Part shown: piece by piece, positions 1,202 to 59,596 of the stretch
Layout of the letters: the number at the start of each line of letters is the position of its first letter
Numbering within the stretch: the stretch's first letter is position 1
Assembly: GCA_041694935.1 (NCBI GenBank)
Contig: JBGFRW010000021.1
Span: forward strand, 22,171-86,170
DNA length: 64,000 nt
Direction: 5' to 3'
Origin: Pseudomonadota bacterium
GTDB lineage: Bacteria; Pseudomonadota; Gammaproteobacteria; Burkholderiales; Rhodocyclaceae
Made by a program: the position numbers and the translations under genes
The notes under the pieces: model-generated
The model's database searches: none
What the model saw: only the letters and a program-made list of their open reading frames with translations
Told to the model about the DNA's origin: nothing

Positions 1202-1777
1202 ATGGGATTGATCGCGTTGCGTTCCGGCTATCCGGGCGGCCGGCTCGGGTCGGCGCTCGCGATCAGCCTTGCCCTGCATCTGGCGCTGCTCTTTCCCCCG
1301 GGATGGCAGACTCCACCGTCCAAACCGGAGCCGCCGCCGCCGCTCCAGGCCACGCTGGCGATGCCCGAACAGACGAGCATCTTGGCCACCCAACCGGATG
1401 CCGAGCCGCCACCGGTCGCCGCGGCACCAGCCGAAACCCGAAAGTTGCCGGTGAAGGAGGAAGGTGCCGTCCCGCCGGCGCCGACTTTTCGCCCGCAGCC
1501 GCCGCGCGAGTTGAAGGGGCGAGAATTGAATGCGGCGCTGGCGGCGTTGTCGCGCGAGGAGTTCTATCCGCGCGAGGCCATCGAACGTGGCATCGAGGGG
1601 CGTGTCGTGCTGCTGCTGACGCTGAGCGAGACGGGGAGAGTGGTCGGTGTCGAAGTGGCCGGGAGTTCAGGCCATGCGATTCTCGATGCGGCGGCGGTGA
1701 AGGCCGCCGGACGCATCGGCGTTTTGCCCAGCGGCGGGCGTCAGGCGCTGCTGCCAGTGGAGTTCAGGCTGGAATGA
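1202..1777 (+). CDS. TonB C-terminal-domain protein (short TonB-like energy transducer)
   Basis: 191-aa ORF with an N-terminal hydrophobic segment and a Pro-rich spacer (KPEPPPPLQ, EPPPVAAAP). This is followed by a TonB_C-like segment YPREAIERGIEGRVVLLLTLSETGRVVGVEVAGSSGHAILDAAAVKAA. Confidence 0.7.
   Translation: MGLIALRSGYPGGRLGSALAISLALHLALLFPPGWQTPPSKPEPPPPLQATLAMPEQTSILATQPDAEPPPVAAAPAETRKLPVKEEGAVPPAPTFRPQPPRELKGRELNAALAALSREEFYPREAIERGIEGRVVLLLTLSETGRVVGVEVAGSSGHAILDAAAVKAAGRIGVLPSGGRQALLPVEFRLE
1463..1490 (-). repeat. Dispersed repeat copy j (antisense within TonB-like gene; read as GAVPPAPTF)
   Basis: Reverse complement GAAAAGTCGGCGCCGGCGGGACGGCACC. Confidence 0.85.
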
Positions 1778-2100: not shown

Positions 2101-2526
2101 TCAGCAGGCCTTGCAGGCTTCCACCGGTAGCCGGCGGGCTAGCCAGCCGGGGCCGGCGCCGCTTCCGGCCATGCCTTCGCGCACGTATACCTGCGTGAAG
2201 CCCTGGGCCTTCAGGAAACGGTGTACCTGGGTCGTGCGGTTGCCGGTACGGCAGATCAGGGCGATCGGCGCCGTCCTGTCGCCGCCGACTTTGGCCAGCA
2301 CCTCGTTGAGGAAGCCGGCCGCGCCCTGCGGATGGATCATGTTGATGAGCGTCGAACCTTCGGCGACGCCGGTTTCCTTCCATTCCGGCGGCGTGCGAAT
2401 GTCGATCAAGGTGATCTTGCCGGAGCGCACGGCCTCGTAGGCTTCGGGTGCGCTCATTTCCTGCGCGTGCGCAGGCAGGGCGGAGAGCGCCATCGAGATG
2501 GCGAGAATGCGGGAGAAACGGAACAT
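2101..2526 (-). CDS. Periplasmic rhodanese-domain sulfurtransferase
   Basis: 141-aa ORF with a signal peptide (MFRFSRILAISMALSALPAHA) and a rhodanese active-site loop CRTGNRT preceded by ...DIRTPPEWKETG. Confidence 0.8.
   Translation of the reverse strand: MFRFSRILAISMALSALPAHAQEMSAPEAYEAVRSGKITLIDIRTPPEWKETGVAEGSTLINMIHPQGAAGFLNEVLAKVGGDRTAPIALICRTGNRTTQVHRFLKAQGFTQVYVREGMAGSGAGPGWLARRLPVEACKAC
2267..2292 (-). repeat. Repeat-like segment k (sense in rhodanese gene; AKVGGDRTAP)
   Basis: Reverse complement AAAGTCGGCGGCGACAGGACGGCGCC, which matches 23 of 26 positions of the consensus. Confidence 0.55.
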
Positions 2527-4906: not shown

Positions 4907-6840
4907 GCCTATTGTCCGTCCGCGACCTGTCGGTTCAGATCGGTACCGCGAACCCCGTCGATGGGGTGAGCTTCGAGATCGCGCCGGGCGAGACCTTTGC
5001 GCTGCTCGGCGAATCAGGTTGCGGCAAGTCGATGACGGCATTGGCGCTGATGCGCCTCCTGCCGTCTGCTGCGCGCATCGCGGGGGGGCGGATCGAGTTC
5101 GAGGGAAAGGACCTGTGCGCCCTGACCGAAGCAGAAATGCGTCCCGTCCGCGGCGGCAGGATCGGCATGATCTTCCAGGAGCCGGCGACCAGTCTCAATC
5201 CGGTGCTGACTGTCGGTGAGCAGATTGCCGAAGCCTTGCGCCTTCACGGTGCTGCGGCGCGAGAGGAGCGCATTGTCGAACTCCTGGCGCAGGTGGGCAT
5301 TCCCGACCCGGCGCGGCGCGCGCACGAATTCCCGTTCCAGATGTCCGGTGGCATGAAGCAGCGCGCGATGATCGCGATGACGCTCGCCGGAGAACCGGAA
5401 CTGCTGATCGCCGATGAGCCGACGACCGCGCTCGACGTGACGATCCAGGCGCAGGTCCTCGCGCTGCTTCGCGACCTGCAGCGGCAGCGAGGCATGGCGT
5501 TGCTGCTTATCACGCACGACCTCGGCGTGGTGGCCAAAATGGCCGACCGCGTCGGCATCATGTACGCCGGCCAGCTCGTCGAGGTTGCGCCGCGTGAGGC
5601 CTTCTTCGCGGCGCCGGGGCATCCCTATGCGCGGCGCTTGTTCGCCTCGTTGCCCGAAGCCGCTTCGCGTCGGCAGCGGCTCGCCACGATTCCAGGCAGC
5701 GTGCCGCCGCTTGGTACGCGCTTCGCCGGCTGTCGCTTTGTCGAGCGCTGCGCCGAGGCGCTGCCGATCTGCCGCACCCAGTCCCCACCTTGGCGCACCT
5801 ATGCGGCAGGCCAGACGGTGCGCTGCCATCTGGAAGAAAGCCCCTTCCACCTCCAGTCCCGCCCTCTCGGGCGGGGAGACTTTGTGCTCGCTACGCCCGT
5901 CGAAAAAGTCGGCGCTGGCGGGACGGCGCCGCTGCTCGAGGCCGAAGGTCTCAAGGTGCACTTTCCGATCCGGCAGGGGATTTTCCAGCGCACGGTCGGC
6001 CATGTGCGTGCCGTCGATGGTATCGACCTGCGTTTGACGGCCGGCCGTACGCTTGCACTGGTGGGTGAATCGGGCTGCGGCAAGACGACCGTCGGCAAGG
6101 CAATCCTCGGCCTGCAACTGCCGACCGACGGAACTGTGCGCCTTGGCGGCGAACGGCTGGCGGGACTGATGCCGTCGCGCATGCAGATGGTGTTCCAGGA
6201 TCCGTTCGGCTCGCTGAATCCGCGCATGCGGGTTGGCGAGATCGTCGCCGAGGGCGATCGCACGGCGGATGTCATTGAGTTGCTCGAGCAGGTTGGACTG
6301 TCCGCCGAAATGGCCGGCCGCTATCCGCACGAGTTTTCGGGCGGCCAGCGCCAGCGCATCGCCATCGCGCGCTCACTCGCACCGCACCCGCAAATTCTGA
6401 TCTGCGACGAACCGACCAGCGCGCTCGACGTCTCGGTGCAGGCGCAGATACTCAACCTGCTTTCCGATTTGCAGGAGGGGCTGGGGCTTGCCTACCTGTT
6501 CATCACGCACAACATCGCAGTGGTGGATTACCTCGCGCACGAGGTGGCGGTGATGTATCTGGGCCGCATCGTCGAGCGCGGCTCGGCCGACGAAGTGCTG
6601 CGCTCGCCATGCCATCCCTACACCCAGGCGCTGCTCGCGGCGGTGCCGAAGATCGACGGCAGCGGGACGGAACGCCTGCTGGTGCCGGGCGATCCGCCTT
6701 CGCCGGCTGCGCCGCCGGCGGGGTGTCATTTCCATCCGCGCTGCCCGCGTGCGCAAGCGCGCTGCCGCGAAGCATATCCCGAGGTAGCGGCAATCACGGC
6801 GACGCATGCCGTGAACTGCTTTTTCGCCGGCAGGGAGTGA
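4903..6840 (+). CDS. ABC transporter ATP-binding protein with duplicated ATPase domains (YejF-like)
   Basis: 645 aa with two Walker A motifs (GESGCGKS twice) and two signature motifs ([16 protein letters not shown]). The GTG start overlaps the permease stop. Confidence 0.9.
5902..5930 (+). repeat. Dispersed repeat copy a (sense, in yejF-like ATPase; [10 protein letters not shown])
   Basis: GAAAAAGTCGGCGCTGGCGGGACGGCGCC. Confidence 0.85.
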
Positions 6841-17225: not shown

Positions 17226-18079
17226 GCGAAGAGGTCGAGGATATCCAGCACGCCACCGAAACGGAAGCCGGCGGGAGAGAGACGGTCGGCCAGATTCTGC
17301 GTGCCGCGAGGGAGGCCGCCAGTCTGACGGTCACCGATGTCGCGCAATCGCTCAAGTTCAGCCCACGCCAGATCGAGCAACTCGAAGCAGACGACTATAC
17401 GTCCCTACCGGGTACGACCATTGTGCGCGGTTTCGCGCGCAGCTACGCCAGACTCCTGAAGCTCGATGCCGATGCGCTGCTGCGCATGCTCGACGACCTA
17501 TCCCCGAATTCCCCTGCGGATGTGCGTCCGCCCGACAACATGGGCGTTGCCAGCGAGCCAAGCGGTTTGCGCCAGATCAGCCCGCTCGCCTCGGTGGCGA
17601 TCGTCTTGATACTGGCCGCCCTGCTGCTCGCCCTCTGGCATTTCCTCGGCCCGAAGATGAGCAACCAGAGCGTCGAACCGGTCGCGGAAAACAACCAAAC
17701 TGTCATGCCGTCAGCAGCCGTTCCGGTTCCAGTGCCTGCCGCTCCACCAGAGTCGGCGGATCAACCGCAGACTGTTGCACCTTCGCCGGTGACTGATGCC
17801 GGTACAGCTCAGCCGCAACCGCAACCGCAGCCCCAATCTGTCGTACCCACGCTGGTTTTCTCGCTTGAAGACCGTTCTTGGGTAGAGGTGGTCGATAGCA
17901 AGAAGCAGGTGCTGCATACCGGGGAAAGTCCGGCGGGCAGCCGGCTGACGCTCAGCGGTCAGCCACCGTTCGATATCGTCATCGGCAAAGCCGGCAAGGT
18001 CAAGCTGACCTACGGCGAGCGTGAGATCGACCTCGCGCCTTATACGCGCGCTGATGTGGCACGCCTGAAACTCGAATAA
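17222..18079 (+). CDS. rodZ: RodZ-like cytoskeleton protein (HTH + TM + DUF4115)
   Basis: 285 aa with an N-terminal HTH ([21 protein letters not shown]), one TM segment, a Pro/Gln-rich linker (QPQPQPQPQ) and a C-terminal DUF4115-like domain. Confidence 0.8.
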
Positions 18080-19368
18080 TGAATTCTTCATCCAGCGCAG
18101 GACCCGTGCGCCGCCCAACGCGGCGCGTCATGGTCGGGAAGGTCGCCATTGGCGGCGGCGTGTCGAAAGTCGGCGCCGACGGGACGGCGCCGGAGGGGGC
18201 GCCTGCTCCGGTGGTGGTTCAGTCGATGACCAACACGGATACCGCAGACGTGTTCGCCACAGCGCAGCAGGTCGCCGAGCTGCACCGCGCCGGATCGGAG
18301 ATCGTGCGCGTTACCGTGAACACCCGCGAAGCCGCCGCGGCCGTGCCGAAGATCAAGGAGCGGCTGGAGCTTTTGAATCTGAATGTGCCGCTGGTCGGCG
18401 ACTTCCACTTCAACGGCCACAAGCTGTTGGCCGAAGTGCCCGAATGTGCGCAGGCGCTCGACAAGTTGCGTATCAATCCCGGCAACGTCGGCAAGGGAGC
18501 GAAGCGCGACGAGCAGTTCGCCAGTCTGATCGAGATCGCCTGCAAATACAAAAAGCCGGTGCGCATCGGCGTGAATTGGGGCAGCCTTGACCAGCAGTTG
18601 CTCGCGCGCCTGATGGACGAAAATGGCAAACGCGCAGCGCCGAAAGACGCAACGGGGCTGATGCGCGAGGCGATGGTCGCCTCGGCACTCGAATCCGCCG
18701 CCAAGGCCGAGGAACTGGGCCTGCCCGGCGATGCGATCATCCTGTCGTGCAAGGTGAGTAGCGTGCAGGATCTGATCGCGATCTACCGCGACCTCGCCGC
18801 GCATTGCGACTACCCGCTGCACCTCGGGCTCACCGAGGCCGGCATGGGCAGCAAGGGCATCGTCGCCTCGACGGCGGCGTTGGCCGTATTGCTTCAGGAA
18901 GGCATCGGCGACACGATCCGCGTTTCCCTGACGCCCGCACCACACGAGCCGCGTACCAATGAAGTCGTCGTCGCTCAGGAGATCCTGCAGACCATGGGCC
19001 TGCGCGCCTTCGTGCCGATGGTGGTAGCCTGCCCAGGCTGCGGGCGCACCAGCAGCACGGTGTTCCAGGAACTTGCACAAGACATCCAGGCTTACGTGCG
19101 CGCGAAGATGCCCGAATGGCAGCTCCTGCACAAAGGCGTCGAGAACATGACCGTCGCCGTGATGGGCTGTGTCGTCAACGGCCCGGGCGAGAGCAAGCAC
19201 GCCAATCTCGGCATTTCCCTGCCAGGCACCGGCGAGGAACCGGTCGCACCGGTCTATGCCGACGGCGAACGCATCACCACCCTGCGCGGCGACAATATTG
19301 CCGCCGAATTCAGAGCCATCATCGACGGTTACGTCGATCGCAAGTATCCGCTGCACCGAGATTCATGA
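18079..19368 (+). CDS. ispG: 4-hydroxy-3-methylbut-2-enyl diphosphate synthase
   Basis: 429 aa with [21 protein letters not shown], and a CPGCGRT...GCVVNGPGE Fe-S cluster region. The N-terminus carries an insertion that coincides with repeat copy b. Confidence 0.95.
18165..18191 (+). repeat. Dispersed repeat copy b (sense, in ispG; [10 protein letters not shown])
   Basis: GAAAGTCGGCGCCGACGGGACGGCGCC. Confidence 0.85.
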
Positions 19369-20672: not shown

Positions 20673-21347
20673 ATGGCGACCTACGATCTCGAAGAGCAGG
20701 AACAGTTAGAAGAACTCAAGACCTGGTGGAAGATGCACGGCACGCTCGTTACGGCGGTCATCGTCGCGCTGGCTATCGGCGTGGTCGGCTGGCAGGGCTG
20801 GCAATGGTGGCAGCGCGGCCAGTCGAGCCAGGCCGCCCAGTTGTACGCCGGCATGCAGCAGGCACTGGCCGGGCAGGACATCAAGCGTGTGCGCCAACTT
20901 GCGGGGGAACTGATCGACAAGTATTCCAGCACCGCCTACGCCGGCATGGCGGGAATGCTGTCCGGCAAGGTGCTCGTGGAGACCGGCGATCTCAAGTCGG
21001 CGCAGGCCCAGTTCGGTTGGGTCGCCGAGCATGCCAAGGATGACGGCCTGCGCGATCTGGCCCGCTTGCGTCAGGCGATCGCATTCGCCGAAGAGAAAAC
21101 CGAGCAGGGGTACGAAGAGGCGCTGAAGCTGCTTGCCGTGCCGCCGGCGCCGACCCTGATGGCACGCTACCTCGAGGTGCGTGGCGATATTCTGGCGGCG
21201 CAAGGCAAGGGGGCTGAGGCTGGCAAGGCCTATGACGAGGCCATCAAGGCACTGGAAGCGGCCCGCAAGGCCGAGGGCGACATGCCGGCGGGGCCGTACC
21301 TCGAAATTCTCGATGCCAAGCGGAGCGCTGCCGGAGGGCAGTCGTGA
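20673..21347 (+). CDS. yfgM: YfgM-like membrane-anchored TPR protein
   Basis: 224 aa with an N-terminal TM segment after EEQEQLEELKTWW. Position between hisS and bamB is conserved. Confidence 0.75.
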   Translation: MATYDLEEQEQLEELKTWWKMHGTLVTAVIVALAIGVVGWQGWQWWQRGQSSQAAQLYAGMQQALAGQDIKRVRQLAGELIDKYSSTAYAGMAGMLSGKVLVETGDLKSAQAQFGWVAEHAKDDGLRDLARLRQAIAFAEEKTEQGYEEALKLLAVPPAPTLMARYLEVRGDILAAQGKGAEAGKAYDEAIKALEAARKAEGDMPAGPYLEILDAKRSAAGGQS

Positions 21348-22510
21348 GATTGAGACTGATCGCGCTGGCCGGCGCTGCCGCCTTGGCGGCAACCGGCTGT
21401 TCGTCGATCGGTAATGCGGTCGACGCCATCAATCCGTTCAGCAAATCCGCACCCAAGGTCAAGCCGGCCGAACTGACTCCGATCCAATCGACGGATGAAC
21501 TCAGAGTCCAATGGCAGGCGAATGTCGGCAGTGCCGGCGAGCATGCCTTTACACCGGCGGTGGTCGGAGACAGCGTCTATGCAGCTGCCAAGGACGGTAG
21601 CATCGCTCGCTTCGAGGGCGGCCGTCAGGTTTGGCGCATCAGTGCCGGCCAGCCCCTCTCCGGCGGCGTCGGTTCCGATGGCAAGCTGGTGGTCGTCGGG
21701 ACGTCGAAGGGCGACGTGCTGGCTTTCAAAGCTACTGATGGCACGCCAGCCTGGCAGGCCCGGACGAGTTCGGAAGTCCTCGCCGCTCCCGCAGTTTCGG
21801 CCGGCCTCGTCGCGGTGCGGAGCGGCGACGCGCGGATCTTCGGCTTCGATGCCGCTGACGGCAAGCGACGCTGGGTCTATCAGCGCAGCACACCGGCACT
21901 GGCATTGCGTTCCCCGGTCGGTGTGACGCTCACTGGCAAGGCGCTCTACGCGGGGTTCCCCGGCGGCAAGCTGGTGGCGATTGCGCTTAACAACGGTGCC
22001 GCCCTGTGGGAATCCGCCGTCGCGCAGCCGCGTGGCGCCACCGAACTGGAGCGCATCGCCGACGTGGCGAGTGAGCCTGTCGTGGATGGCGGTTCGGTGT
22101 GTGCCGTCGCCTATCAGGGGCGCGTTGCCTGTTTCGATGCCGACAACGGCCGCCAGTTGTGGGCGCGTGAGATTTCCTCGGTCGCCGGTCTGGCCATCGG
22201 TAGCCGCTCGCTCTACGTGACCGACGAGAAGGGGGCGGTGCATGCCTTCGAACGCAGCGGTGGCGCCAGCCTCTGGAAGCAGGACAAGCTGTTCATGCGT
22301 GGCGTGTCGCGACCGCTCGTCGTCGGGCGCCGTGTTGCCGTCGCCGACTTTCAGGGCGTGGTTCATCTCCTTTCCGCTGAAGACGGCGCTTTCGCCGCAC
22401 GCCTGACGACCGACGGCTCGGCGGTGCTCGTGCCGCCGCAGCGGCTCGGAGAGAATGCCTTCCTCGTGCAGACCAGGAACGGCGGATTGCACGCCCTGAC
22501 GACGAAATAA
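21344..22510 (+). CDS. bamB: Outer membrane protein assembly factor BamB
   Basis: 388 aa with a lipobox (LAATGCSS) and PQQ-like beta-propeller repeats. Lies upstream of der. Confidence 0.9.
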
Positions 22511-22512
22511 TA

Positions 22513-23841
22513 ATGCTGCCCACGCTTGCTCTGGTCGGCCGACCCAACGTCGGCAAGTCGACGCTCTTCAACCGGCTGACGAAAACGCGCGATGCGTTGG
22601 TCGCCGATCAGCCGGGACTGACGCGTGATCGCCATTACGGCCACGGCCGGCTCGGCAAGCGACCCTTTCTCGTCGTCGATACCGGCGGCTTCGAGCCGCA
22701 GGCGAAAGACGGCATCGAGCATGAAATGGCGCGCCAGGCCGAAGCGGCGATCGCCGAGGCCGATGCGCTGATCTTTCTCGTCGACGGCCGCGCCGGGCTC
22801 ACGCCGCAGGACAAAGTGATCGCCGAGCGGCTGCGCCGCTCCGGCAGGCCGCTGCATCTCGCCGTCAACAAGGCAGAGGGCATGAACCGCGATGTCGTTG
22901 CGGCAGAGTTCCACGAACTCGGTTGCGGCGATCCGCTTGTCATCTCGTCGGCGCACGGCGATGGCGTGCGCGAGATGCTCGAGCTGGTGATGGAGGCCTT
23001 TCCCGAGGACGAGCCGGACGATGCCTCAGAAAGCGGGCCGCGCGTCGCCGTGGTCGGGCGGCCGAACGTCGGCAAGAGCACGCTGATCAACAGCCTGCTT
23101 GGCGAGGAACGCATGATCGCCTTCGACATGCCGGGTACCACGCGTGATGCGATTTCCACGCCGTTCGAGAAGAATGGCAAGCGCTACACCCTGATCGATA
23201 CGGCCGGCCTGCGACGCAAGGGCCGCGTTTTCGAGGCGATCGAGAAGTTTTCGGTGATCAAGACGCTGCAGGCGGTCGAGGCGGCCAATGTCGTCGTGCT
23301 GATGGTCGACGCGAGTCAGGATATCTCCGATCAGGACGCGCACATTGCAGGATTTTGCATCGAGGCCGGGCGTGCGCTGGTGCTGGCGGTGAACAAATGG
23401 GACGCCGTCGACCAATATCGCCGCGACCAGATCAAGCAGGACATCATGCGCAAGCTCAACTTCCTCGGCTTCGCACGCGTCCATTACATCTCGGCATTGA
23501 AGGGGCAGGGCGTTGCCAGCGTGCTCCAGTCAGTCGACAAGGCCTATGCCGCGGCGATGGTCAAGCTGTCCACGCCTAAGCTCACGCGCGTGTTGCTCGA
23601 CGCCGTTCAGAAACAGGCGCCGCCCAGACACGGCAATGTTCGCCCCAAGCTGCGTTATGCGCACCAGGGCGGCAGCAACCCGCCGATCATCGTGATCCAC
23701 GGCAATGCGCTCGAACACGTGCCGCCGGCCTACGTCCGCTATCTCGAGCACACCTACCTCGAGGCCTTCAAGCTGCAGGGCACGCCGCTGCGAATCCAGT
23801 TCAAGAGCAGCAAGAATCCCTACGTCGACAAGGAAAAATAG
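22513..23841 (+). CDS. der: Ribosome-associated GTPase Der (EngA)
   Basis: 442 aa with two GTPase domains (GRPNVGKST twice) and a KH-like C-terminus. Confidence 0.95.
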
Positions 23842-23864
23842 TCGGCGCTGGCGACACGGTACGG
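23833..23864 (+). repeat. Dispersed repeat copy c (variant, spans the der stop codon)
   Basis: GAAAAATAGTCGGCGCTGGCGACACGGTACGG. The extra T creates the der TAG. Confidence 0.7.
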
Positions 23865-23892
23865 TTGAATCCGCGGGCCAGGCGGCTATACT
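23865..23892 (+). promoter_or_regulatory. Candidate sigma-70 promoter for fdxA
   Basis: TTGAAT (23865-70), a 16-nt spacer, then TATACT (23887-92). It starts immediately after repeat copy c. Confidence 0.4.
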
Positions 23893-23925
23893 TGAGTCGA
23901 AAACTCGGGAAAGGGAGCTAGTGCG

Positions 23926-24272: not shown

Positions 24273-24740
24273 ATGCAAGTCAGGCAGATTCTCGATATCA
24301 AGGGTACGGTGCTCTATACGATTTCTCCCGACAAGAAGCTCGCCGAAGCGGTGGCGGTGATGAGCGAGCAGGACGTCGGATCGCTGGTCTGCTTCGAGGG
24401 CGGCCGCATGGTCGGCATGCTGACCTTCCGCGAAGTGGTGCGCACGCTGCATGCCGAAGGTGCGGCATGGGGCGGCATCCCAATCCGCGATGTGATGGTG
24501 AAGAACCCGCGCACGGCAGATCCGTTCATGGACGTCGACCAGTTGCGCCGGTTGATGATCAGCGAGCATATGCGTTACTTGCCAGTGATGGACGGCTATA
24601 CGCTGCTCGGGGTGATTTCCTTCCACGACGTCGCCAAGGCGGTGCTCGAGGAACAGACCTTCGAGAACCGCATGCTCAAGGCCTATATCCGCGACTGGCC
24701 TGCCGAGCAGGCGGAACAGGAAGCAGCGCACGGTTCCTGA
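24273..24740 (+). CDS. CBS-domain pair protein
   Basis: Start at MQVRQILDIKG, preceded by GGAGAG. Two CBS-like modules (…RDVMVKNPRTADPFMDVDQLRRLMISEHMRYLPVMD…ISFHDVAKAV). Confidence 0.8.
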   Translation: MQVRQILDIKGTVLYTISPDKKLAEAVAVMSEQDVGSLVCFEGGRMVGMLTFREVVRTLHAEGAAWGGIPIRDVMVKNPRTADPFMDVDQLRRLMISEHMRYLPVMDGYTLLGVISFHDVAKAVLEEQTFENRMLKAYIRDWPAEQAEQEAAHGS

Positions 24741-24765
24741 AAGTCGGCGCCGGCGGGACGGCGCC
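24739..24765 (+). repeat. Dispersed repeat copy d (fills the gap between convergent CBS and GGDEF/EAL genes)
   Basis: GAAAGTCGGCGCCGGCGGGACGGCGCC. Its first two bases are part of the CBS-gene TGA. Confidence 0.85.
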
Positions 24766-30038: not shown

Positions 30039-31184
30039 GTGAGCCCTTTGGGGCGGCTGGCCGCCTGGTATTTCTTCTATTTCGCTTTCGTCGGCGCATT
30101 CGCGCCGTATTTCACTCTTTATTTGCAGGACATCGGCCAAAGCGCCTGGGAAATCGGCGTGCTGATGTCCGTGCCCCAGGTGATGCGCCTGTTGGCGCCG
30201 AACCTCTGGGGCTGGCTGGCCGACCATTTCGGACACCGCACGGCGATCGTGCGGCTGGCCGCAGCCTGTTCCGCGCTCGGCTTCATCGGCTTCTTCTTCA
30301 CGCAAGACTTCGCGCTGATGCTCGCAGCGATGGCGCTCGTCTGGTTCTTCTGGAGCGCTGCGCTTCCGCTCGTCGAGGCGATGACGCTCGACCGGCTCGC
30401 CGGCCGGACCGAGCGCTATGGCAGCATTCGTCTCTGGGGGTCGGTCGGATTCATCGTCAGCGTGCTGGTTATCGGCGCAATCCTCGACTATGTTCCGGCG
30501 GATGCGATTCTCTGGGCCTGTCTGTTCATTCTTGCCAGCGTGCTGGCCAGCGCGCTGACCCTGCCGGAGACGAAAGTCGCTGCCGGCGTTGCGGCGCCTC
30601 CACTCGGCAGTCTGATCATGCGCCCGGCGGTACTTGCGCTGCTGGCTGCCAGTTTCTTCATGTCCATGGCCCATGGGCCGCTCTATATCTTTTTCTCAAT
30701 CCATCTGGTCGACCACGGCTACGACAAGACGGCAGTTGGTCTCTACTGGTCGCTCGGCGTATTGGCCGAGATTGTGGTGTTTCTTTACATGCCGCGTCTG
30801 ATGAAGCACGCGTCGTTGCGAGCTATCCTATTGGCCAGTTTTGCGCTTGCCGTCGTGCGCTTCCTTTTGATCGGCTGGGGGACTGCTTCGGCGACCATGC
30901 TGCTGTTCGCCCAGATCTTGCATGGCGCGACCTTCGGGGCCTACCATGCAGCTTCTGTAGCGGTGCTGACGCAGTGGTTTCCCCCGCAACAGCAGGCACG
31001 CATGCAAGGGCTCTATGGCAGTTTGTCTTTCGGAGCGGGCGGCATGGTAGGCGGTCTGATCAGCGGCCAAGCCTGGGATAGTCTCGGTGCCGGAATGACA
31101 TATACCCTCGCAGCGCTGTTCGCGGCTTGTGGCTGGTTGCTTGTGTGGCGCTGGCTGTCATCCAAATCATTGGAGTGCCGTTGA
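30039..31184 (+). CDS. MFS transporter (HcaT/PPP-like)
   Basis: 381 aa with ~12 hydrophobic segments and the N-terminus AAWYFFYFAFVGAFAPYFTLYLQ. GTG start. Confidence 0.75.
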   Translation: MSPLGRLAAWYFFYFAFVGAFAPYFTLYLQDIGQSAWEIGVLMSVPQVMRLLAPNLWGWLADHFGHRTAIVRLAAACSALGFIGFFFTQDFALMLAAMALVWFFWSAALPLVEAMTLDRLAGRTERYGSIRLWGSVGFIVSVLVIGAILDYVPADAILWACLFILASVLASALTLPETKVAAGVAAPPLGSLIMRPAVLALLAASFFMSMAHGPLYIFFSIHLVDHGYDKTAVGLYWSLGVLAEIVVFLYMPRLMKHASLRAILLASFALAVVRFLLIGWGTASATMLLFAQILHGATFGAYHAASVAVLTQWFPPQQQARMQGLYGSLSFGAGGMVGGLISGQAWDSLGAGMTYTLAALFAACGWLLVWRWLSSKSLECR

Positions 31185-31993: not shown

Positions 31994-33400
31994 ATGCCGA
32001 AAACGCTTTACGACAAATTGTGGGAGAGCCACGTCGTCCGCACCGAGCCGGACGGCACCGCGCTGCTCTACATCGACCGCCATCTGGTACATGAGGTGAC
32101 CAGCCCGCAGGCCTTTGAGGGGCTCAAGCTCGCCGGCCGCAAGCCATGGCGCGTGTCCTCGATCGTCGCCACTGCCGACCATAACACGCCGACCGACCAC
32201 TGGGAACGCGGCATCGAAGACCCGGTATCGCGCCAGCAGGTCGAGACGCTTGACGTCAACATCCGCGAGGTTGGCGCCTTGGCCTATTTCCCGTTCAAGG
32301 ACGCCCGTCAGGGTATTGTCCATGTGGTCGGTCCGGAGAACGGTGCAACGCTGCCGGGCATGACTGTCGTCTGCGGCGACTCGCACACCTCGACCCACGG
32401 CGCCTTCGCCTGCCTGGCGCACGGCATCGGCACCTCTGAGGTCGAACACGTGATGGCGACGCAGTGTCTGCTGCAGAAGAAGATGAAGTCGATGCTGATT
32501 CGCGTCGAAGGAAAAGTCGGCGCTGGCGTGACGGCGAAGGACATCGTGCTGGCCATCATCGGCAAGATCGGCACGGCCGGCGGCACAGGTTACGCCATCG
32601 AGTTCGGCGGCAGCGCTATCCGCGCGCTGTCGATGGAAGGGCGTATGACGGTCTGCAACATGGCGATCGAGGCAGGCGCGCGTGTCGGCTTTGTCGCTGT
32701 CGACGACACCACCATCTCCTATCTCAAAGACCGTTCCTTCGCCCCAAAGGGCGAGCAGTGGGATCGCGCCGTCGCCTACTGGCATACGCTGACGTCCGAT
32801 CCGGGCGCGCAGTTCGATGCCGTCGTCGATCTCGATGCGTCGGCGATTCAGCCGCAGGTCACCTGGGGCACCTCTCCCGAGATGGTGGTGCCCGTCGACG
32901 GCCGCGTGCCGGCGCCGGAGGACTTCGTTGATCCGGTCAAGCGTGAAGGCGTCGCTCGCGCATTGCAATACATGGGGCTGGCCCCGCGCACGCCGATCAA
33001 GGAGATCAAGGTCGACCAGGTCTTCATTGGCAGTTGTACCAACTCGCGCATCGAGGACCTGCGAGAGGCGGCTTTCGTCGCCCGTGGCAGGCATAAGGCG
33101 GCGAATGTGAAACGGGTGCTTGTCGTGCCGGGTTCCGGTCTCGTCAAGAAGCAGGCCGAAGCTGAGGGGCTCGACAAGATTTTTACCGCCGCAGGTTTCG
33201 AGTGGCGCGAGCCTGGTTGCTCGATGTGCTTGGCGATGAATGCTGACCGGCTCGAGCCCGGTGAGCGTTGCGCCTCGACCTCGAACCGTAATTTCGAAGG
33301 CCGCCAGGGTAATGGCGGTCGTACTCACCTTGTCAGTCCGGCCATGGCTGCAGCCGCAGCCGTCGCTGGACATTTCGCGGATGTCAGAGACATTCTTTAA
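31994..33400 (+). CDS. leuC: 3-isopropylmalate dehydratase large subunit
   Basis: 468 aa: [15 protein letters not shown]...[12 protein letters not shown]...[12 protein letters not shown]. Confidence 0.95.
32511..32536 (+). repeat. Repeat-like segment e (sense, in conserved part of leuC; [10 protein letters not shown])
   Basis: GAAAAGTCGGCGCTGGCGTGACGGCG. The similarity stops at ...GCGAAGG, and there is no length change relative to LeuC as I recall it. Confidence 0.5.
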
Positions 33401-41404: not shown

Positions 41405-42596
41405 GTACAAGTTGCCAGACGAACATGGGCATTTCGGTAAATTTGGTGGGATATTCGTTGCCGAAACCCTGATGCCAGCGCTGGCGGAGCTGAATGAGGC
41501 CTACGAGGCCGCGAAGGCCGATCCGCAATTCCGTGCCGAGTTCGAATACGAGCTGGCCCACTACGTCGGCCGCCCCAGCCCGATTTACCATGCCAAACGC
41601 TGGTCCAATCAACTGGGCGGCGCGCAGATTTATCTGAAGCGCGAGGATTTGAACCATACCGGCGCGCACAAGGTGAACAACTGCATCGGCCAGGCGTTGC
41701 TTGCTCGCCGCATGGGCAAGCCGCGCGTGATCGCGGAAACCGGCGCGGGTCAGCATGGGGTGGCCACGGCCACCGTCGCGGCGCGCTACGGCATGGAATG
41801 TGTCGTCTATATGGGCAGCGAGGATGTCAAACGCCAGGCGGCGAACGTCTATCGCATGAAGTTGCTCGGCGCGAAGGTCGTTCCCGTCGAGTCCGGCTCG
41901 AAGACGCTCAAGGATGCGCTCAACGAGGCGATGCGAGACTGGGTGACAAACGTCGGCAACACCTTCTACATCATCGGTACAGTCGCCGGCCCGCACCCCT
42001 ATCCGATGATGGTGCGCGATTTCCAGTCGGTGATTGGCCGCGAGTGCCTCGGCCAGATGTCGACACTGGCGGGACGGCAGCCAGACCAGGTGATCGCCTG
42101 CGTCGGCGGTGGTTCGAACGCCATGGGCATCTTCTACGACTACATCCCCCATTACGAGGTCAAGTTGGTCGGCGTCGAAGCTGCAGGACACGGACTGTCC
42201 ACCGGCCAGCATGCCGCGTCGTTGACGATGGGACGTCCCGGCGTGCTGCACGGCAACCGTACCTATCTCTTGCAGGATGACAACGGCCAGATCATCGAGA
42301 CCCATTCGGTTTCCGCAGGCCTCGACTATCCCGGTGTCGGACCCGAGCATGCCTGGCTCAAGGACTCCGGCCGCGCGGAGTACGTGACCGTGACCGACGA
42401 GGAAGCGCTCGCCGCCTTTCACGATCTTTGCCATTACGAGGGAATCATTCCGGCGCTCGAGTCGAGCCACGCGCTGGCCTATGCGACACGGATCGCGCCG
42501 ACCCTGCCACAGGACAAGATCCTGCTCGTCAATCTTTCCGGCCGCGGCGACAAGGATATGCACACTGTCGCCGAGCGCTCGGGCATCCAGTTTTGA
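41391..42596 (+). CDS. trpB: Tryptophan synthase beta chain
   Basis: 401 aa: ...[16 protein letters not shown] (PLP Lys)...GGGSNAMG. Confidence 0.95.
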
Positions 42597-44286: not shown

Positions 44287-45581
44287 TGGCGGATATGTCT
44301 GGCCGCAGCCTGCAGGACTGGCTCGGCCATCTGGAAAGCCTGCACCCGCGCGGGCAGGCCGGCATCGAACTCGGGCTCGAACGCATCATACGGGTCAAGA
44401 CAGCGCTGGGACAGCGCCAGACCTGTCCGGTCATCACCGTCGGCGGCACCAACGGCAAAGGTTCGGCTTGTGCGATGCTAGAGCGCATCCTGCTGTGCGC
44501 AGGCTACCGTGTCGGCCTCTACACTTCCCCCCATCTGTTGAGCTACAACGAGCGAGTGCGTGTCAACGGCGCCGTCGTGAGCGATGAGGAATTGTGCTCG
44601 GCTTTTGAAAGGGTCGAGGGAGCGCGCAACGATGTGTCGCTGACCTATTTCGAATTCGGGACCCTCGCGGCGTGGGAGGTGTTTGCCGCGGCGGGGCTCG
44701 ACGCCATCATCCTCGAAGTCGGGCTCGGCGGACGCCTTGACGCGACGAATGCCTATGATGCCGATTGTGCAGTCGTCACGACGATCGGTCTCGACCATAT
44801 GGACTACCTTGGCCCGACGCGAGAAACGATCGGCCGCGAAAAGGCCGGCATCTGCCGGGCAGGCCGGCCACTGATCTGCGGCGACGACGATCCGCCGCAG
44901 TCGCTCGCAGAAGCATGCCGTGTCGCCGGCGCCGACTTTTGGCGCATCGGCCGTGATTTTGGCTTCGTGCGCCAAGAAGGTCAGTGGCAGTTCTGGACAA
45001 AGGGTGGCCGCAAGCTCGGCGGACTGGCCTTTCCTGCGTTGCGGGGGGGGTATCAGCTGAACAACGCGAGTTGTGCGCTGGCGGTGCTCGACGCCTTGCG
45101 CGAACGCCTGCCGGTCGCCGCGCAGGATGTTCGGCGCGGCCTCGCCGAGGTCGAGGTGGCGGGACGCTGCCAGGTGCTGCCGGGACGGCCACAGATTGTC
45201 CTCGACGTCGCCCACAACCCGCAGGCGGCAGCGGCGCTTGCGGCGAGCCTGGGCGACATGGGTTTCTCGCGCGCGACCTGGGCGGTGTTCGGCATGATGG
45301 CGGACAAGGACATCACGGGCGTCGTCGACGCGCTGCAATCCCGCATCGATCGCTGGCTGGCCTGCGACCTGCCCGGAACCCGTGCAGCCAGTGCCGAACA
45401 GCTTGCGGCGGTCATCGAAAAAGTCGGCGCTGGCAAGACGGCGCCGGTGTGCTTCGCTAGCCCCGCCGCAGCGCTTGCCTATGCTCAGGAGAACGCAGAG
45501 GCCGATGATAGAATCCTCGCCTTCGGATCGTTCCTGACGGTGGCGGACGTGATGCGTTCCCTGGGTCGCAAGGCTGGCTGA
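44286..45581 (+). CDS. folC: Bifunctional folylpolyglutamate synthase/dihydrofolate synthase
   Basis: P-loop VGGTNGKGS; Mur-ligase family. ATG 44286 overlaps the accD TGA (the ORF track begins at TTG 44283). Confidence 0.9.
   Translation: MADMSGRSLQDWLGHLESLHPRGQAGIELGLERIIRVKTALGQRQTCPVITVGGTNGKGSACAMLERILLCAGYRVGLYTSPHLLSYNERVRVNGAVVSDEELCSAFERVEGARNDVSLTYFEFGTLAAWEVFAAAGLDAIILEVGLGGRLDATNAYDADCAVVTTIGLDHMDYLGPTRETIGREKAGICRAGRPLICGDDDPPQSLAEACRVAGADFWRIGRDFGFVRQEGQWQFWTKGGRKLGGLAFPALRGGYQLNNASCALAVLDALRERLPVAAQDVRRGLAEVEVAGRCQVLPGRPQIVLDVAHNPQAAAALAASLGDMGFSRATWAVFGMMADKDITGVVDALQSRIDRWLACDLPGTRAASAEQLAAVIEKVGAGKTAPVCFASPAAALAYAQENAEADDRILAFGSFLTVADVMRSLGRKAG
44913..44940 (-). repeat. Dispersed repeat copy i (antisense within folC; read as CRVAGADFW)
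   Basis: Reverse complement AAAAGTCGGCGCCGGCGACACGGCATGC. It shares the GCGACACGG variant with copy c. Confidence 0.6.
45417..45445 (+). repeat. Dispersed repeat copy f (sense, in folC; EKVGAGKTAP)
   Basis: GAAAAAGTCGGCGCTGGCAAGACGGCGCC. Confidence 0.85.
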
Positions 45582-49691: not shown

Positions 49692-52606
49692 CTTTCCAGG
49701 TAGCTGCGCAATTCGGTCGCGACCGCTTCATATTCGGTGCGCAGCGCGGCAATGGCGGTCTCTGCACCAGCGAGCTTGCCTTCTGCGGCGTCCTGCTCGA
49801 GCATGCGAGCCATGGCCGACAGGTGCATCGCCCCGTAGGTCGCTGCAGAAGACTTGAGGCTGTGCGCATGGCGGCGAAGCGTGGGCGCATCGTTTGCAGT
49901 CAGAGCGCTGGTCATCTCGTCGAATAGCGGCGGAGTCGATTCAAGGAAGACATCGATCAGCGAGGCGAAGTCGCTGCCGAACTGAGTACGGAAATTGTCC
50001 AGCGGCTTGCGGTCGAGGTGCGTTTCGGCGGAGCTTGAGTGAGCCTCCTTGCTTGATGCGCCGCCAGTGCTGGCAGCTGGAACTGTGGGTAGTGGCAGGG
50101 TGAACCAGAAAGTCGAGCCTCTGCCGACGGCACTTTCGGCATCCATGGTCCCGCCCATCAGCTCGACAAGACGCTTGGAGATGGTTAGCCCGATCCCTGT
50201 CCCGCCGACCTTGCGAGTATTGCTCGTATCGCCCTGCGAGAAAGGTTGGAACAGTAGGTCCAGTTTCTCCCGCTCGATGCCGACTCCGGTGTCACGCACT
50301 GCAATGCGAAGCTGCGGCGTTCCGTCCACTTTATTTCCGACGTTCTTGACATCGACTTCGATATGCCCCGCGTCGGTGAATTTGACGGCGTTGCCAAGGA
50401 GGTTGAGCAGAACCTGTCGGATGCGTCCTGCGTCACCGATGACCAAACGCGGGCAATCGGAGGCATAGTGCATGCGCAATTCCAGTCCCTTTTCCGCAGC
50501 ACGTGCCGCCATCAGACCGATGATTTCTGACACGCTTCCCTCAAGGTCGAACGTGGCAGAAAGAATCTCCATATGGCCGGCGTCGAGATTCGAGAAGTCG
50601 AGGATGTCGTTGAGGATGGTCAGGAGAGCGCTGCCGGATTTCATGAGGGTCTGGGCATACTCTTCCTGTTCCTGAGAGAGTCCGGATTGGGAAAGGATCT
50701 GCGCCATGCCGAGAATGCCATTCAATGGCGTGCGAATTTCATGACTCATGGTGGCAAGGAAATCGCTCTTGGCGCGCTCTCCGGCCTCGGCGCTCAGGCG
50801 TGCCTCTTCGAGAGCTGCGCGGGACTGGCGAGCCGCGATGCCTAGGGCGAGAATGTCCGCTACCTGAGACAGGAATTCGCGTTCGCCGCCTTTTTCTTCG
50901 TAGTCGTGCGGCAGATAAAGCACCAGTACGCCAAGCAAGGCTTCGCCGTGAAGGATCGGCAGGTTGTAGTGGCCGTGCGGCGCCATGTCATCAAAGGAAA
51001 TATCGTGACGCTCGTCGAGGCAGCGGGCGAACTGGATCTTACGGGTCGCCGCGGCACGGCCGCAGAGGCACTTCCCGTGCGGCACACGGGCGCAGAGAGT
51101 CAGCAGCGGTGCAGAAAGATTGCGTTCGGCGGCCAGTATCAACTCCGGTGCCGTCCCGCTAGTGCCTACCTTTTCGAGAAAGATTGCTCCCTTGGGCAAA
51201 AGCGTCAACCAAGGAACGCTATCGAGCAGGGTATCGATGCTCAGTTGCAGGTATTCAGGCATCGGCATCGGTTGCAGCGATAGACGCAGCAGCGCGGCAA
51301 GGGTGCGCGCCTGCTTGGCGTCGAGCTCGGCGACTGCCTTGGCTTCGATCAGCACTTGGCTTGCACGGCTATCCGCTTCCAGGTTAGTGCGGGCGCGCAC
51401 GTCGTTGCGCATGTGTTCAAAGGCGCGGGCAAGTGTGCCGATTTCGTTCGCTTCCCCGGTCGGCAAGGGAAGGTCACGGCCCGACTCGGCAAATGCCCGC
51501 ACTGAGGCAGTCATGCGGCGCAGAGGACTGGTCAGTGTCGCGGCGGCAAGGAAAGCGAGAGGAATAGCGGCGAGGGCAACGACATAGAGCATCGGCAATA
51601 GGGCTGCGCTCGCTGCCTTCGCGCTGGCCTGGGCGCTGGCGTAGGTCTCGGTGACGGCAACCGTGATGTAGCGTTGTGTTTGGCGGCTATCGAAAGGCAG
51701 GCGAACCACGCCGGCGATGACTTCGCGTCCGCTGCTTTCCTTGTCATGGACACTGAATGCATCCTGATTGAGGAAATCAATCTCGCGGTGCACTGCCGGC
51801 AAGAGGGTGGGTAACTCGGGATCTGCCGCATTGCCGGGGAACTCGAATCCGTAGCTGCAGGTGATGGAAGGCGGAGCCGTCAGGCAATAGCCGTCGGAGT
51901 TGAATAGATAGAGCGACTGCCCCTCGCGCAAGCTACCACGCATGATGCCGAGCACTTTTGCAAGGTCGAGTTGCAGCACCAAGATGCCCAGAGATTCCCC
52001 CTTGGCATCGTGCAGCGGGGCAAGCGCATGGATAACGGGCTGAAATGGCTCGAGGATGTTGCCGTTCTTTCGTTTCAGTTGGGTTGCACTCAGGTAGGTC
52101 TGTCCGGATGACAAGCCACGGCCGATACGATACAGGGAGCTGTCGGCGAAACTTTCTTGGAGATCGGAGTCATCAGCGGATGGTGGCTGGCCTTGCTTGG
52201 CGCGAACCAGCACCCGGCCGGGTTGGACGGTGCTGACCAAGAAGGCCTCAGCATAGTTCGTGTTGCTGAGCAGAAAGGTAACGAGATCGTTGTGTGCCCG
52301 CTCGCGTGAGGTATCTCTACTACGCGTGTCTGCGAGCGCAAGCAGTGAAGGAAAAGAAGCCATCGTGACCGCGTCGTGGCGCAGGTGCTCGAGGATGTTG
52401 ATGCGCAGATGCTCCGCCAAACCATGCACTGCATTGACGAGGGCGTGGCGCTCGGTTCTTTCCAATTGTTGGCCGAACTCCCGCTGGGCTAGGTGGGCGG
52501 TCAGGCCGATGAGAACCAGTACCAGCAGCACGATGCCCAGTGTGATCCGTGCAGTGAGGCTGCGGGGAAAGAGAGCAATACCGGAAGGACTTGCCGAGCG
52601 TGTCAT
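49688..52606 (-). CDS. Membrane sensor histidine kinase (periplasmic domain-HAMP-GAF-HisKA-HATPase-Hpt, no receiver)
   Basis: 972 aa. H-box SDFLATMSHEIRTPLNG, N/G boxes (LLNLLGNAVKFT, DTGVGI, GGTGIGL), a GAF-like region, and a C-terminal Hpt (RRHAHSLKSSAATYG). Confidence 0.9.
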   Translation of the reverse strand: MTRSASPSGIALFPRSLTARITLGIVLLVLVLIGLTAHLAQREFGQQLERTERHALVNAVHGLAEHLRINILEHLRHDAVTMASFPSLLALADTRSRDTSRERAHNDLVTFLLSNTNYAEAFLVSTVQPGRVLVRAKQGQPPSADDSDLQESFADSSLYRIGRGLSSGQTYLSATQLKRKNGNILEPFQPVIHALAPLHDAKGESLGILVLQLDLAKVLGIMRGSLREGQSLYLFNSDGYCLTAPPSITCSYGFEFPGNAADPELPTLLPAVHREIDFLNQDAFSVHDKESSGREVIAGVVRLPFDSRQTQRYITVAVTETYASAQASAKAASAALLPMLYVVALAAIPLAFLAAATLTSPLRRMTASVRAFAESGRDLPLPTGEANEIGTLARAFEHMRNDVRARTNLEADSRASQVLIEAKAVAELDAKQARTLAALLRLSLQPMPMPEYLQLSIDTLLDSVPWLTLLPKGAIFLEKVGTSGTAPELILAAERNLSAPLLTLCARVPHGKCLCGRAAATRKIQFARCLDERHDISFDDMAPHGHYNLPILHGEALLGVLVLYLPHDYEEKGGEREFLSQVADILALGIAARQSRAALEEARLSAEAGERAKSDFLATMSHEIRTPLNGILGMAQILSQSGLSQEQEEYAQTLMKSGSALLTILNDILDFSNLDAGHMEILSATFDLEGSVSEIIGLMAARAAEKGLELRMHYASDCPRLVIGDAGRIRQVLLNLLGNAVKFTDAGHIEVDVKNVGNKVDGTPQLRIAVRDTGVGIEREKLDLLFQPFSQGDTSNTRKVGGTGIGLTISKRLVELMGGTMDAESAVGRGSTFWFTLPLPTVPAASTGGASSKEAHSSSAETHLDRKPLDNFRTQFGSDFASLIDVFLESTPPLFDEMTSALTANDAPTLRRHAHSLKSSAATYGAMHLSAMARMLEQDAAEGKLAGAETAIAALRTEYEAVATELRSYLES
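51147..51175 (-). repeat. Dispersed repeat copy g (diverged; sense in histidine kinase GAF region; EKVGTSGTAP)
   Basis: Reverse complement GAAAAGGTAGGCACTAGCGGGACGGCACC. Confidence 0.65.
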
Positions 52607-59170: not shown

Positions 59171-59596
59171 ATGGTTTCAACCAAGCCGTACTTGATCCGC
59201 GCCATTCATGAATGGTGCTCGGATCAGGGCTTCACGCCCTATCTGGCTGTGCAGGTGGATGAGCGCACGCGCGTCCCGCGCGAATTCGTGCGCGACGGTC
59301 AGATCGTGTTGAACATCAGCCTCGAAGCGACCCATCAACTGGTGATGGGCAACGATGAGATCACCTTTCAGACCCGTTTCAGCGGCACGACTTTCCCGGT
59401 CGTGGTTCCGGTCGATGCCGTTGCAGCTATCTACGCACGCGAAAACGGGCAAGGCATGGCCTTCGAGCCGGTCGCCAGTCCGGCAGGAATGAGCGAGGAA
59501 AAAGTCGGCGCCGGCGATACGGCGCCTGGCGAGCCCGCAAGCCCCGACGAGGGGGGGGGCGGCCGCCGCGGCGGTCATCTGACGCGCATCAAATAG
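59171..59596 (+). CDS. sspB: ClpXP adaptor SspB (stringent starvation protein B)
   Basis: 141 aa: STKPYLIRAIHEWCSDQGFTPYLAV...VLNIS. It has a flexible Gly-rich linker and a short basic C-terminal tail (HLTRIK). The linker contains repeat copy h. Confidence 0.9.
   Translation: MVSTKPYLIRAIHEWCSDQGFTPYLAVQVDERTRVPREFVRDGQIVLNISLEATHQLVMGNDEITFQTRFSGTTFPVVVPVDAVAAIYARENGQGMAFEPVASPAGMSEEKVGAGDTAPGEPASPDEGGGGRRGGHLTRIK
59498..59526 (+). repeat. Dispersed repeat copy h (sense, in sspB linker; EKVGAGDTAP)
   Basis: GAAAAAGTCGGCGCCGGCGATACGGCGCC. Confidence 0.85.

Follow-up and report, generated by a model that had tools for sequence, protein, structure and literature searches.

How an enzyme as essential as IspG comes to carry, within a conserved block of its N-terminus, residues encoded by a DNA repeat that is dispersed over the surrounding genome is the question raised by the ispG (gcpE) gene of an uncultured member of the Rhodocyclaceae. 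The gene lies on a stretch of 64,000 nucleotides (GenBank assembly GCA_041694935.1, contig JBGFRW010000021.1, positions 22,171 to 86,170), which is referred to here in its full length as the window. A preliminary description of this stretch had proposed that one repeat copy, copy b, was inserted in frame into ispG, and had regarded the gene as the cleanest case for an insertion event over native sequence. The analysis reported here leads to a different reading, in which copy b is probably one copy of a lineage-specific DNA word of 26-27 nt that is kept genome-wide by selection or by a copying bias, this being the best explanation for the observations as a whole.

The Extra Segment of IspG

The open reading frame (ORF) at 18079-19368 on the + strand translates as had been described and is, judged by its sequence, IspG/GcpE, the 4-hydroxy-3-methylbut-2-enyl diphosphate (HMBPP) synthase. 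Enzymes of this kind combine a GcpE TIM barrel with a C-terminal 4Fe-4S domain, in which three cysteines and one glutamate are conserved. The window protein matches Thermus thermophilus IspG (2Y0F/4S38) over residues 35-423 with E = 1e-154, the GcpE Pfam domains PF04551 and PF26540 are present on its homologs, and the cluster cysteines C318, C321, and C364 as well as E371 do not vary among 40 aligned close homologs. A shorter gene-caller product, P0001, begins at M18; the RRPTRRV motif upstream of M18 is conserved and common to IspG homologs.

At the VQSMTNT block, the window protein is 15 residues longer than the Thermus structure and than the IspG of an outgroup set comprising 80 orthologous loci (L001-L080; 1.43 Mb) from other Betaproteobacteria and relatives, taken from the matches listed in an IspG scan of genome contigs, all at no more than 82% identity. 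The outgroup proteins read VG.V.(V/I)GG.AP(V/I)VVQSMTNT, are of Thermus length, and lack the segment, with L002 (+6) as the sole exception. The IG(D/G)GAP...VQSMTNT block, contiguous in T. thermophilus IspG and in the outgroups, is thus interrupted in the window protein much as the preliminary description had it. That description had drawn its comparison with E. coli IspG, in place of which T. thermophilus IspG and the outgroups were used here. The alignment of orthologs that had been proposed as a check places no segment of the same length in distant IspG, and because these distant orthologs are devoid of it, the sequences support the extra residues as lineage-specific and not native to IspG.

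The added length is composite. The 27-nt word unit, coding for K30-P38 (KVGADGTAP), accounts for nine of the 15 residues and matches the consensus of the dispersed word at 25 of 26 bases, against 10 mismatches in the adjacent native unit K21-S29. The latter is ancestral-like, as the outgroups read VAIGG, and is not word-like. The remaining six residues, EGAPAP, match a D/E-G-x-P-S/A-P extension that is found in relatives without the extra unit and is missing from basal forms and outgroups. The earlier statement that the core of the extra residues is the repeat therefore applies to the nine codons and does not extend to EGAPAP, which is a separate addition.

Among the closest IspG homologs (78-91% identity; Rhodocyclaceae metagenome-assembled genomes, Sulfuricystis, and Sulfuritalea), this site is a hot spot of length variation. 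The basal state (0) reads GGTAP-VVVQ and the +6 state GGTAP-DGxPSP-VVVQ; the +15 state is shared by the window protein, P0003, P0005, and P0015, and P0004 (+20), P0022 (+24), and several further lengths were found. The +6 and +15 ispG alleles differ by exactly 27 nt. In an AlphaFold2 model of the window protein, built on a 40-sequence alignment and with a mean predicted local distance difference test score (pLDDT) of 74, strands are assigned to residues 17-19 and 22-24 (the N-terminal hairpin) and 48-50 (VQS, strand β1), and residues 27-43 between hairpin and β1 are coil with pLDDT < 50. The insert is therefore predicted to sit in a disordered loop just before the first barrel strand, which agrees with its earlier placement just upstream of the barrel start. 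In a (β/α)8 barrel, the loop entering β1 belongs to the N-terminal face, opposite the catalytic face. By this general topology the loop would face the non-catalytic side, and the insert may be expected to be tolerated for that reason. The loop itself is of modest interest, in that a range of 0 to 24 extra residues between close relatives marks a place where the protein tolerates insertions.

A Dispersed DNA Word

The 26-base consensus of the word is AAAGTCGGCGCYGGCGGGACGGCGCC, and the 26-27-nt form may be written (G)AAAAGTCGGCGCYGGCGrGACGGCGCC. In the window, its 23-nt core is found at 10 sites with up to three mismatches, compared to 0.00 expected from shuffles, and at up to six mismatches to the 26-nt consensus there are 15 copies in the 64 kb, nine on the + and six on the - strand; it is the most over-represented 10-14-mer of the window, and its density is about one copy per 4-8 kb. 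The 1.43 Mb of outgroup DNA contains no site with four mismatches or fewer, two with five, two with six, and 20 with seven, whereas the 213 kb of ingroup DNA (the window and close relatives) contains 43, seven, 11, and four, respectively. Because the outgroup background is so low, ingroup matches of up to six mismatches are essentially all true members of the family.

At least 190 distinct contexts from at least 120 metagenome contigs show sharp unit borders and wholly unrelated flanks. Across these contexts, the variation is concentrated in three central positions and some 20 positions are near-invariant; the consensus ends in AAAGTC... and ...GGCGCC, with no conserved flank on either side. 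The word has dyad symmetry (GGCGCY-N8-GGCGCC) and can fold into a stem of 7-8 bp (CGGCGCYG / CGGCGCCG) with a 6-nt loop, at a dG of -8.8 to -12 kcal/mol and a z-score of -2 to -3. None of its six frames contains a stop codon. In the window, 13 of the 15 copies lie in coding sequence and the other two at stop codons (23838, 24740). Among 138 metagenome copies all six frames are used, same-strand frame 0 most commonly, as far as can be told from a crude call based on GC content at third codon positions, which probably over-calls "no clear ORF," such that the hand-annotated window is preferred. As a separate observation, metagenome loci L096, L103, L123, L152, and L171 have the word read in another frame (KSRRWRDGA) just before a hydrophobic WVLLALA; the peptide looks like the positively charged N-region of a signal peptide, and at L166:7150 such an ORF starts at ATGAAAAAGTCGG, where the word begins as well.

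Two simple roles were considered and rejected. A peptide motif is at odds with copies in all six frames and between genes, and with variable positions that are not the synonymous ones; a simple intrinsic terminator is at odds with a mostly intragenic location in either orientation and with a T-run on the reverse strand only. Polar chromosomal motifs such as Chi and the FtsK-orienting polar sequences (KOPS) are strongly co-oriented with the replication leading strand. GC skew is positive over most of the window, and in the metagenome loci the two orientations relative to local GC skew are represented by 45 and 37 copies, a weak polarity that argues, if not decisively, against a Chi- or KOPS-like role. 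Rfam returned no match at any word copy in the window, a literature search for the word sequence returned none, and plasmid records held only single chance partial matches in GC-rich genera and not the word. The word is an undescribed dispersed family with unusual behavior.

Copies without Change of Length

At several conserved proteins the word is present with no trace of inserted length. The site in LeuC aligns without gaps to GDLQPYVTSKD of solved LeuC, and the word is followed at the free positions with departures only at conserved residues. The TrpB site is likewise gap-free against QILEKEGRLPD of solved TrpB, and the ortholog in L102 is a better copy of the word. The YfgM site shows no indel against 50-odd outgroups, which natively possess only the ...EPAPAF half, and the FolC site at 44914 shows none against E. 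coli FolC; at the other folC copy (45420), small indels surround the word and the lysine is kept. Chance resemblance of the LeuC, TrpB, and YfgM sites was rejected on the outgroup background counts. Since no indel is present, the copies in LeuC, TrpB, YfgM, and FolC cannot be explained by an inserted mobile element. The strong copies (up to three mismatches) lie mostly in poorly constrained segments, such as the Pro-rich region of TonB, an ABC linker, the stretch past the SspB domain, and the IspG loop, and the weaker copies are found at constrained protein sites.

The words at ispG, yfgM, bamB, the gene for a major facilitator superfamily (MFS) transporter, and the gap between a CBS-domain and a GGDEF gene recur at orthologous places in loci that share only about 79-87% nucleotide identity, and L209, a near-complete public genome of the clade, has the word at ispG, the MFS gene, bamB, and yfgM. 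Local turnover is seen in the ABC linker, where the word occupies one position in the window and in L081 (as two tandem copies in the latter) and is shifted upstream by about 20 residues in L082, L205, and L208. Conservation of position with diverging flanks, together with such turnover, indicates a motif kept by selection or copying bias, unlike insertions that decay.

Two Configurations at the ispG Site

Comparison of the units in the DNA of eight ingroup loci reveals two configurations of ispG. In the single-unit alleles there is no extra unit, and the native GKVGVGGTAP codons are themselves the word, with one to three mismatches. The basal L208 (state 0) reads GGA AAA GTC GGC GTT GGC GGG ACG GCA CCG, and L207 (+6) is identical but for GCG, such that the rarer codons AAA and GGG are present in the word-like native motif of both. 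In L209 (GCA_942493065.1; OW818671.1, a contig of 3.05 Mb) the native codons are rewritten into the word with three mismatches. The same native site in the 80 outgroups is 7-14 mismatches away from it. In the two-unit alleles, the proximal native unit reads KVAIGG, as in outgroups L001 and L036, and is 6-11 mismatches away from the word (six in L083 and, at the distance of the outgroup sites, seven in L081, 10 in the window, and 11 in L206). The distal extra unit of the same alleles has one mismatch in the window, two in L081, and five each in L083 and L206. All ingroup ispG alleles examined hold one word-like unit (one to five mismatches) just before the first barrel strand. Because relatives without the extra unit have the word as their native motif, ispG offers no clear-cut example of insertion over native sequence.

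The number of units has also changed. L205:10028-10108 holds three consecutive 27-nt units, of which the second is an exact hybrid of the first and the third and so bears the mark of a tandem duplication of 27 nt that took place very recently; read from this hybrid sequence, local duplication certainly does occur at the ispG site. L206 has an additional 15-nt partial duplication there. A protein-only neighbor-joining tree of IspG was too poorly resolved to place the insertion states, and a bootstrapped neighbor-joining tree of 5.2 kb of nucleotide sequence (ispG-hisS-yfgM-bamB-der) was used instead. On that tree the window pairs with L081, L208 (0) with L205 (+24), and L207 (+6) with L206 (+20), each with 100% bootstrap. 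As fully supported sister pairs differ in length state, this state is, by the nucleotide sequences, one that has changed independently at least three times between sister lineages. The earlier claim of an insertion event is supported in part, in that the extra residues are lineage-specific and their nine-codon core belongs to the dispersed family. As to how the length was gained, the L205 duplication and the repeated length changes point at least as much to local duplication or unequal exchange as to transposition.

Gene Blocks Bounded by Word Copies

At two loci, segments of DNA lie between direct copies of the word. In L081, the closest relative, a 3.5-kb block of three genes (L081:15705-19225; a 47-aa ORF, a Vgb_lyase/PEP-CTERM protein, and a TPR protein) stands between der and a ferredoxin gene and is flanked by two direct copies, both of the spacer variant GCGACA; at the corresponding place (23838-23925) the window has one copy of that variant and no block. 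In L106 (L106:1359-2713), a 1275-bp segment contains two toxin-antitoxin-like gene pairs, which by sequence resemble DUF4160/DUF2442 and DUF433/DUF5615. On either side of it stands one copy of an 80-nt direct repeat (89% identical), in which the word is joined to the final 40 nt of fliE. Just upstream of this segment there is a RelE/Phd-like pair, and the 4.8-kb contig has six word copies.

A Model for the Word and Its Alternatives

A model may be proposed in which an uncultured clade of the Rhodocyclaceae keeps the word at the level of DNA throughout its genome, about once per 4 kb; most copies fall within genes, and both strands and every reading frame are used. Some genomes have rewritten their native ispG codons into the word with no change in length (KVGVGGTAP), and others, the window included, have kept the ancestral-like KVAIGG, with the word added as an in-frame unit of 27 nt that is followed by the six-codon extension. 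Tandem duplication of 27 nt, or unequal exchange between word-like units, may have repeatedly added and removed the extra unit; alternatively, it may have been imported next to the native motif, and the two configurations could interconvert. The protein would tolerate the unit because the loop into which it falls is disordered and faces the non-catalytic side of the TIM barrel, and the object maintained would be the DNA word and not the peptide. In its general form, namely that the word is selected or driven and is not a transposing repetitive extragenic palindromic (REP) element, this reading is considered likely, with somewhat greater assurance than attaches to the account of copy b. Among known processes, the drive of an uptake signal appears, by analogy, to explain best a long word that arises in place in conserved genes on both strands, with a bias of frame and conserved positions. 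Uptake or self-recognition is accordingly proposed as the most likely single function of the word, albeit an unproven one. That the word is indeed a DNA-uptake or self-recognition signal of this clade, and would form a third independent and much longer kind beside those of the Neisseriaceae and Pasteurellaceae, is put forward tentatively and is considered less likely than not.

Several observations weigh against a selected or driven word of this kind. Known uptake sequences are much shorter than the word, contain far less information, and are denser (about one per kb compared to about one per 4-8 kb for the word), and the word can form a REP-like hairpin. The unit of nine additional residues, the tandem copies, and the cassettes between direct word copies in L081 and L106 resemble insertion or recombination events. 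Strong ingroup copies are distributed 22 to nine between the + and - strands, a count that is not independent as many of these copies are orthologous. At codon 4 of the distal unit, all two-unit alleles have GCY (Ala), as opposed to GTT (Val) in single-unit alleles, so that import or homogenization from the dispersed family fits slightly better than local duplication. Finally, the eight ispG loci are compatible with more than one order of events, and exchange of alleles between lineages could mimic recurrent change.

Four other explanations have to be weighed, the first being a miniature mobile element. The word would then be a hairpin similar to REP elements or miniature inverted-repeat transposable elements, mobilized by a transposase in trans, of which one copy was inserted in frame in ispG, where the loop tolerated it. 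Such an element would have the sharp borders, unrelated flanks, hairpin potential, tandem copies, and six stop-free frames of the present word; it would also account for the exact 27-nt difference between the +6 and +15 alleles and for the unconverted, outgroup-like proximal unit of the window, as expected if the word came from elsewhere. In-frame intragenic REPs are documented, Thauera included (Di Nocera et al., 2013; PMC3733652). However, copies without length change are present in at least five conserved proteins, the coding location of 13 of the 15 window copies contrasts with the mainly extragenic location of REPs, neither a GTAG/CGTC end tag nor inverted doublets are present, no target-site duplication was seen, and word positions are conserved at about 80% nucleotide identity while flanks diverge, all of which makes a mobile element unlikely. 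Far less can be said for a purely local duplication of native ispG codons whose likeness to the repeat is coincidental, or for an ancestral origin of the whole segment. Tandem duplication does occur at the site and the native motif and the word encode near-identical peptides (KVGVGGTAP and KVGAGGTAP), but copy b departs from the dispersed consensus at a single one of 26 bases where its native neighbor has 10 mismatches, a match as close as this has an expectation of zero by chance, and 80 outgroups are without the segment; on the background counts, the outgroup IspG sequences, and the unit mismatches, this explanation is effectively refuted.

A word kept by selection for site density could instead be the binding site of an abundant chromosomal protein involved in nucleoid organization, in segregation, or in marking self against foreign DNA for a nuclease. 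In-place evolution inside genes, conserved positions, and turnover with the word kept locally would all be expected of such a site, as would the dyad symmetry and the presence of copies that run either way with respect to local GC skew. However, there is no known protein that would be a candidate, the sites known for such proteins are shorter and much less numerous in a genome, and the sequence alone reads the same for a binding site as for an uptake signal; the binding site is regarded as improbable. The layout of the word, with two 7-bp inverted arms around a 6-bp spacer in which variation is concentrated (7-6-7), is also that of the core site of a tyrosine-type site-specific recombinase, at which cassettes would be inserted and of which the ispG copy would be a by-product. 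The L081 block between direct copies with spacer GCGACA, a single such copy in the window, and the L106 segment bounded by the repeat of word and fliE 3' end are what such a site would leave behind. However, hundreds of sites evolving in place in conserved coding sequence would not be expected, no recombinase gene was seen adjoining the cassettes, and homologous (Campbell-type) integration would account equally well for the 80-nt duplication in L106. With two examples only, a recombination-site role is retained as a minor rival on the strength of L081 and L106, and is held to be very improbable.

Comparison with Known Systems

The proposed role invites comparison with the uptake signal sequences (USS) of the Pasteurellaceae and the DNA uptake sequences (DUS) of the Neisseriaceae. 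As with these, the word is short, lineage-specific, hugely over-represented, mostly intragenic, and present on both strands; it arises in place by the rewriting of unconstrained codon positions, with a preference for frames that give harmless peptides; and its best copies lie in poorly constrained segments, with orthologous positions kept and variant forms between lineages. USS and DUS, however, have a core of 9-12 nt and occur about once per kb, in contrast to a 26-27-nt word at about one per 4-8 kb, and unlike them the present word has a 7-8-bp hairpin and also multiplies by tandem duplication of unit length. A literature search for uptake sequences in Rhodocyclales found nothing.

REP elements and their paired form (REPIN) are 20-40-nt GC-rich imperfect palindromes with many copies able to form stem-loops, and the word has this hairpin; some of its copies also lie between converging genes near stop codons. 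It departs from them in its largely coding location, in the absence of the GTAG/CGTC end tag, and in the arrangement of its copies, which stand alone or in direct tandem, with just one inverted pair at close range (44914 and 45420, 480 nt apart in folC). It also departs from them in that many copies entail no change in length, insertion being seen only for the extra ispG unit and the tandem copy in the ABC linker. GTAG/CGTC-tagged REPs have been described that are also intragenic and in frame, including in Thauera (Di Nocera et al., 2013; PMC3733652), and a palindromic repeat inside an essential gene is therefore not new in itself. Were the word a mobile REP after all, its replacement of native sequence would make it an unusual member of that class.

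Copy b superficially resembles the Rickettsia palindromic elements (RPE), which are likewise translated within essential proteins in tolerant surface segments; RPE, however, are selfish and true insertions of 100-150 bp, unlike a word of 26-27 nt that is often made in place. The dRS3 repeats of Neisseria are 20 bp long, with inverted 6-nt ends around eight variable bases, and serve in intergenic regions as integration sites of phages and islands. They share with the present word the short inverted termini, the variable center, and the many copies, and the gene blocks bounded by word copies in L081 and L106 recall them as well. However, dRS3 repeats are intergenic and the present word is mostly intragenic.

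Few processes are known to keep a 26-nt word at intervals of about 4 kb, mostly inside genes, through either rewritten native codons or added in-frame units, and with positions conserved as the flanks diverge; uptake-signal drive is the best understood of these, and none is known to have been described for Rhodocyclales. Should uptake or self-recognition be what the word signals, the phenomenon would extend to environmental Betaproteobacteria and would present a bias at the DNA level that shapes conserved protein motifs. Such a copying bias would be strong enough to rewrite the GxVxIGGxAP of IspG into GKVGVGGTAP, or to add a nine-residue loop, and would also rewrite LeuC, TrpB, YfgM, and FolC.

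Word Copies and Neighboring Features in the Window

The positions of the ispG features and of the word copies, the latter with Pfam-based annotation, are compiled in Table 1.

Table 1. Features of ispG and copies of the dispersed word in the window.
Feature	Position	Strand	Remarks
Word copy in tonB, Pro-rich linker	1463..1488	-	Strand opposite to gene; peptide GAVPPAPTF
Word copy in rhodanese-domain gene	2267..2292	-	Same strand as gene, frame 0; KVGGDRTAPIALIC
Word copy in ABC protein gene	5905..5930	+	Linker between the two ATPase halves
ispG (gcpE) coding sequence	18079..19368	+	429 aa; ORF; PF04551/PF26540 on homologs; PDB match
Native unit K21-S29 (KVAIGGGVS)	18139..18165	+	Part of N-terminal beta-hairpin motif; 10 mismatches to word
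Extra in-frame 27-nt unit K30-P38 (KVGADGTAP)	18166..18192	+	Copy b of dispersed word; 1 mismatch over 18166-18191
Six-codon extension E39-P44 (EGAPAP)	18193..18210	+	Alignment with relatives
Degenerate word copy in yfgM	21132..21157	-	Strand opposite to gene; LAVPPAPTLM or LAVPPAPSFM; no indel versus outgroups
Degenerate word copy in bamB	22326..22351	-	Strand opposite to gene; kept in most ingroup loci
Word copy at der stop codon	23838..23863	+	Overlaps the stop codon; GAAAAATAGTCGGCGCTGGCGACACGG
Perfect word copy between converging genes	24740..24765	+	Fills gap between stops of CBS-domain gene (+) and PAS-GGDEF-EAL gene (-)
Degenerate word copy in MFS transporter gene	30573..30598	+	Orthologous site in L209 with 4 mismatches
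Word copy in leuC	32513..32538	+	Gap-free alignment to solved LeuC and aconitase-family chains
Degenerate word copy in trpB	42056..42081	+	Frame 2; gap-free alignment to solved TrpB
Degenerate word copy in folC	44914..44939	-	Strand opposite to gene; no indel versus E. coli FolC
Word copy in folC, C-terminal domain	45420..45445	+	IEKVGAGKTAP versus E. coli LEHLGNGKS
Degenerate word copy in hybrid histidine kinase gene	51147..51172	-	Between HAMP and GAF domains; EKVGTSGTAP
Word copy in sspB	59501..59526	+	Just past the Pfam SspB domain match; EKVGAGDTAP

The word copy that overlaps the der stop codon is followed immediately by a sigma-70-like promoter (TTGAAT-N17-TATACT) at 23864-23895, upstream of a gene for a 7Fe-type ferredoxin (23926-24249). 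The segment made up of word and promoter is present in the window and in L081, is degenerate in L082, and is missing from L205 and L208, in which the gap between der and the ferredoxin gene measures 4-15 nt. The PAS-GGDEF-EAL gene that abuts the perfect word copy (24767-27457, - strand) has a paralog at 6851-9283 (- strand), with which it shares stretches of 71-78% identity. Upstream of the TonB gene, a 198-nt direct repeat of 86% identity occurs as two copies 864 nt apart (1-198 and 865-1062); the two + strand ORFs tested there gave no Pfam match, and the repeat may reflect paralogs on the opposite strand. Some 50 nt downstream of sspB lies a tRNA gene (59649-59721, - strand), the sole Rfam match in the window.

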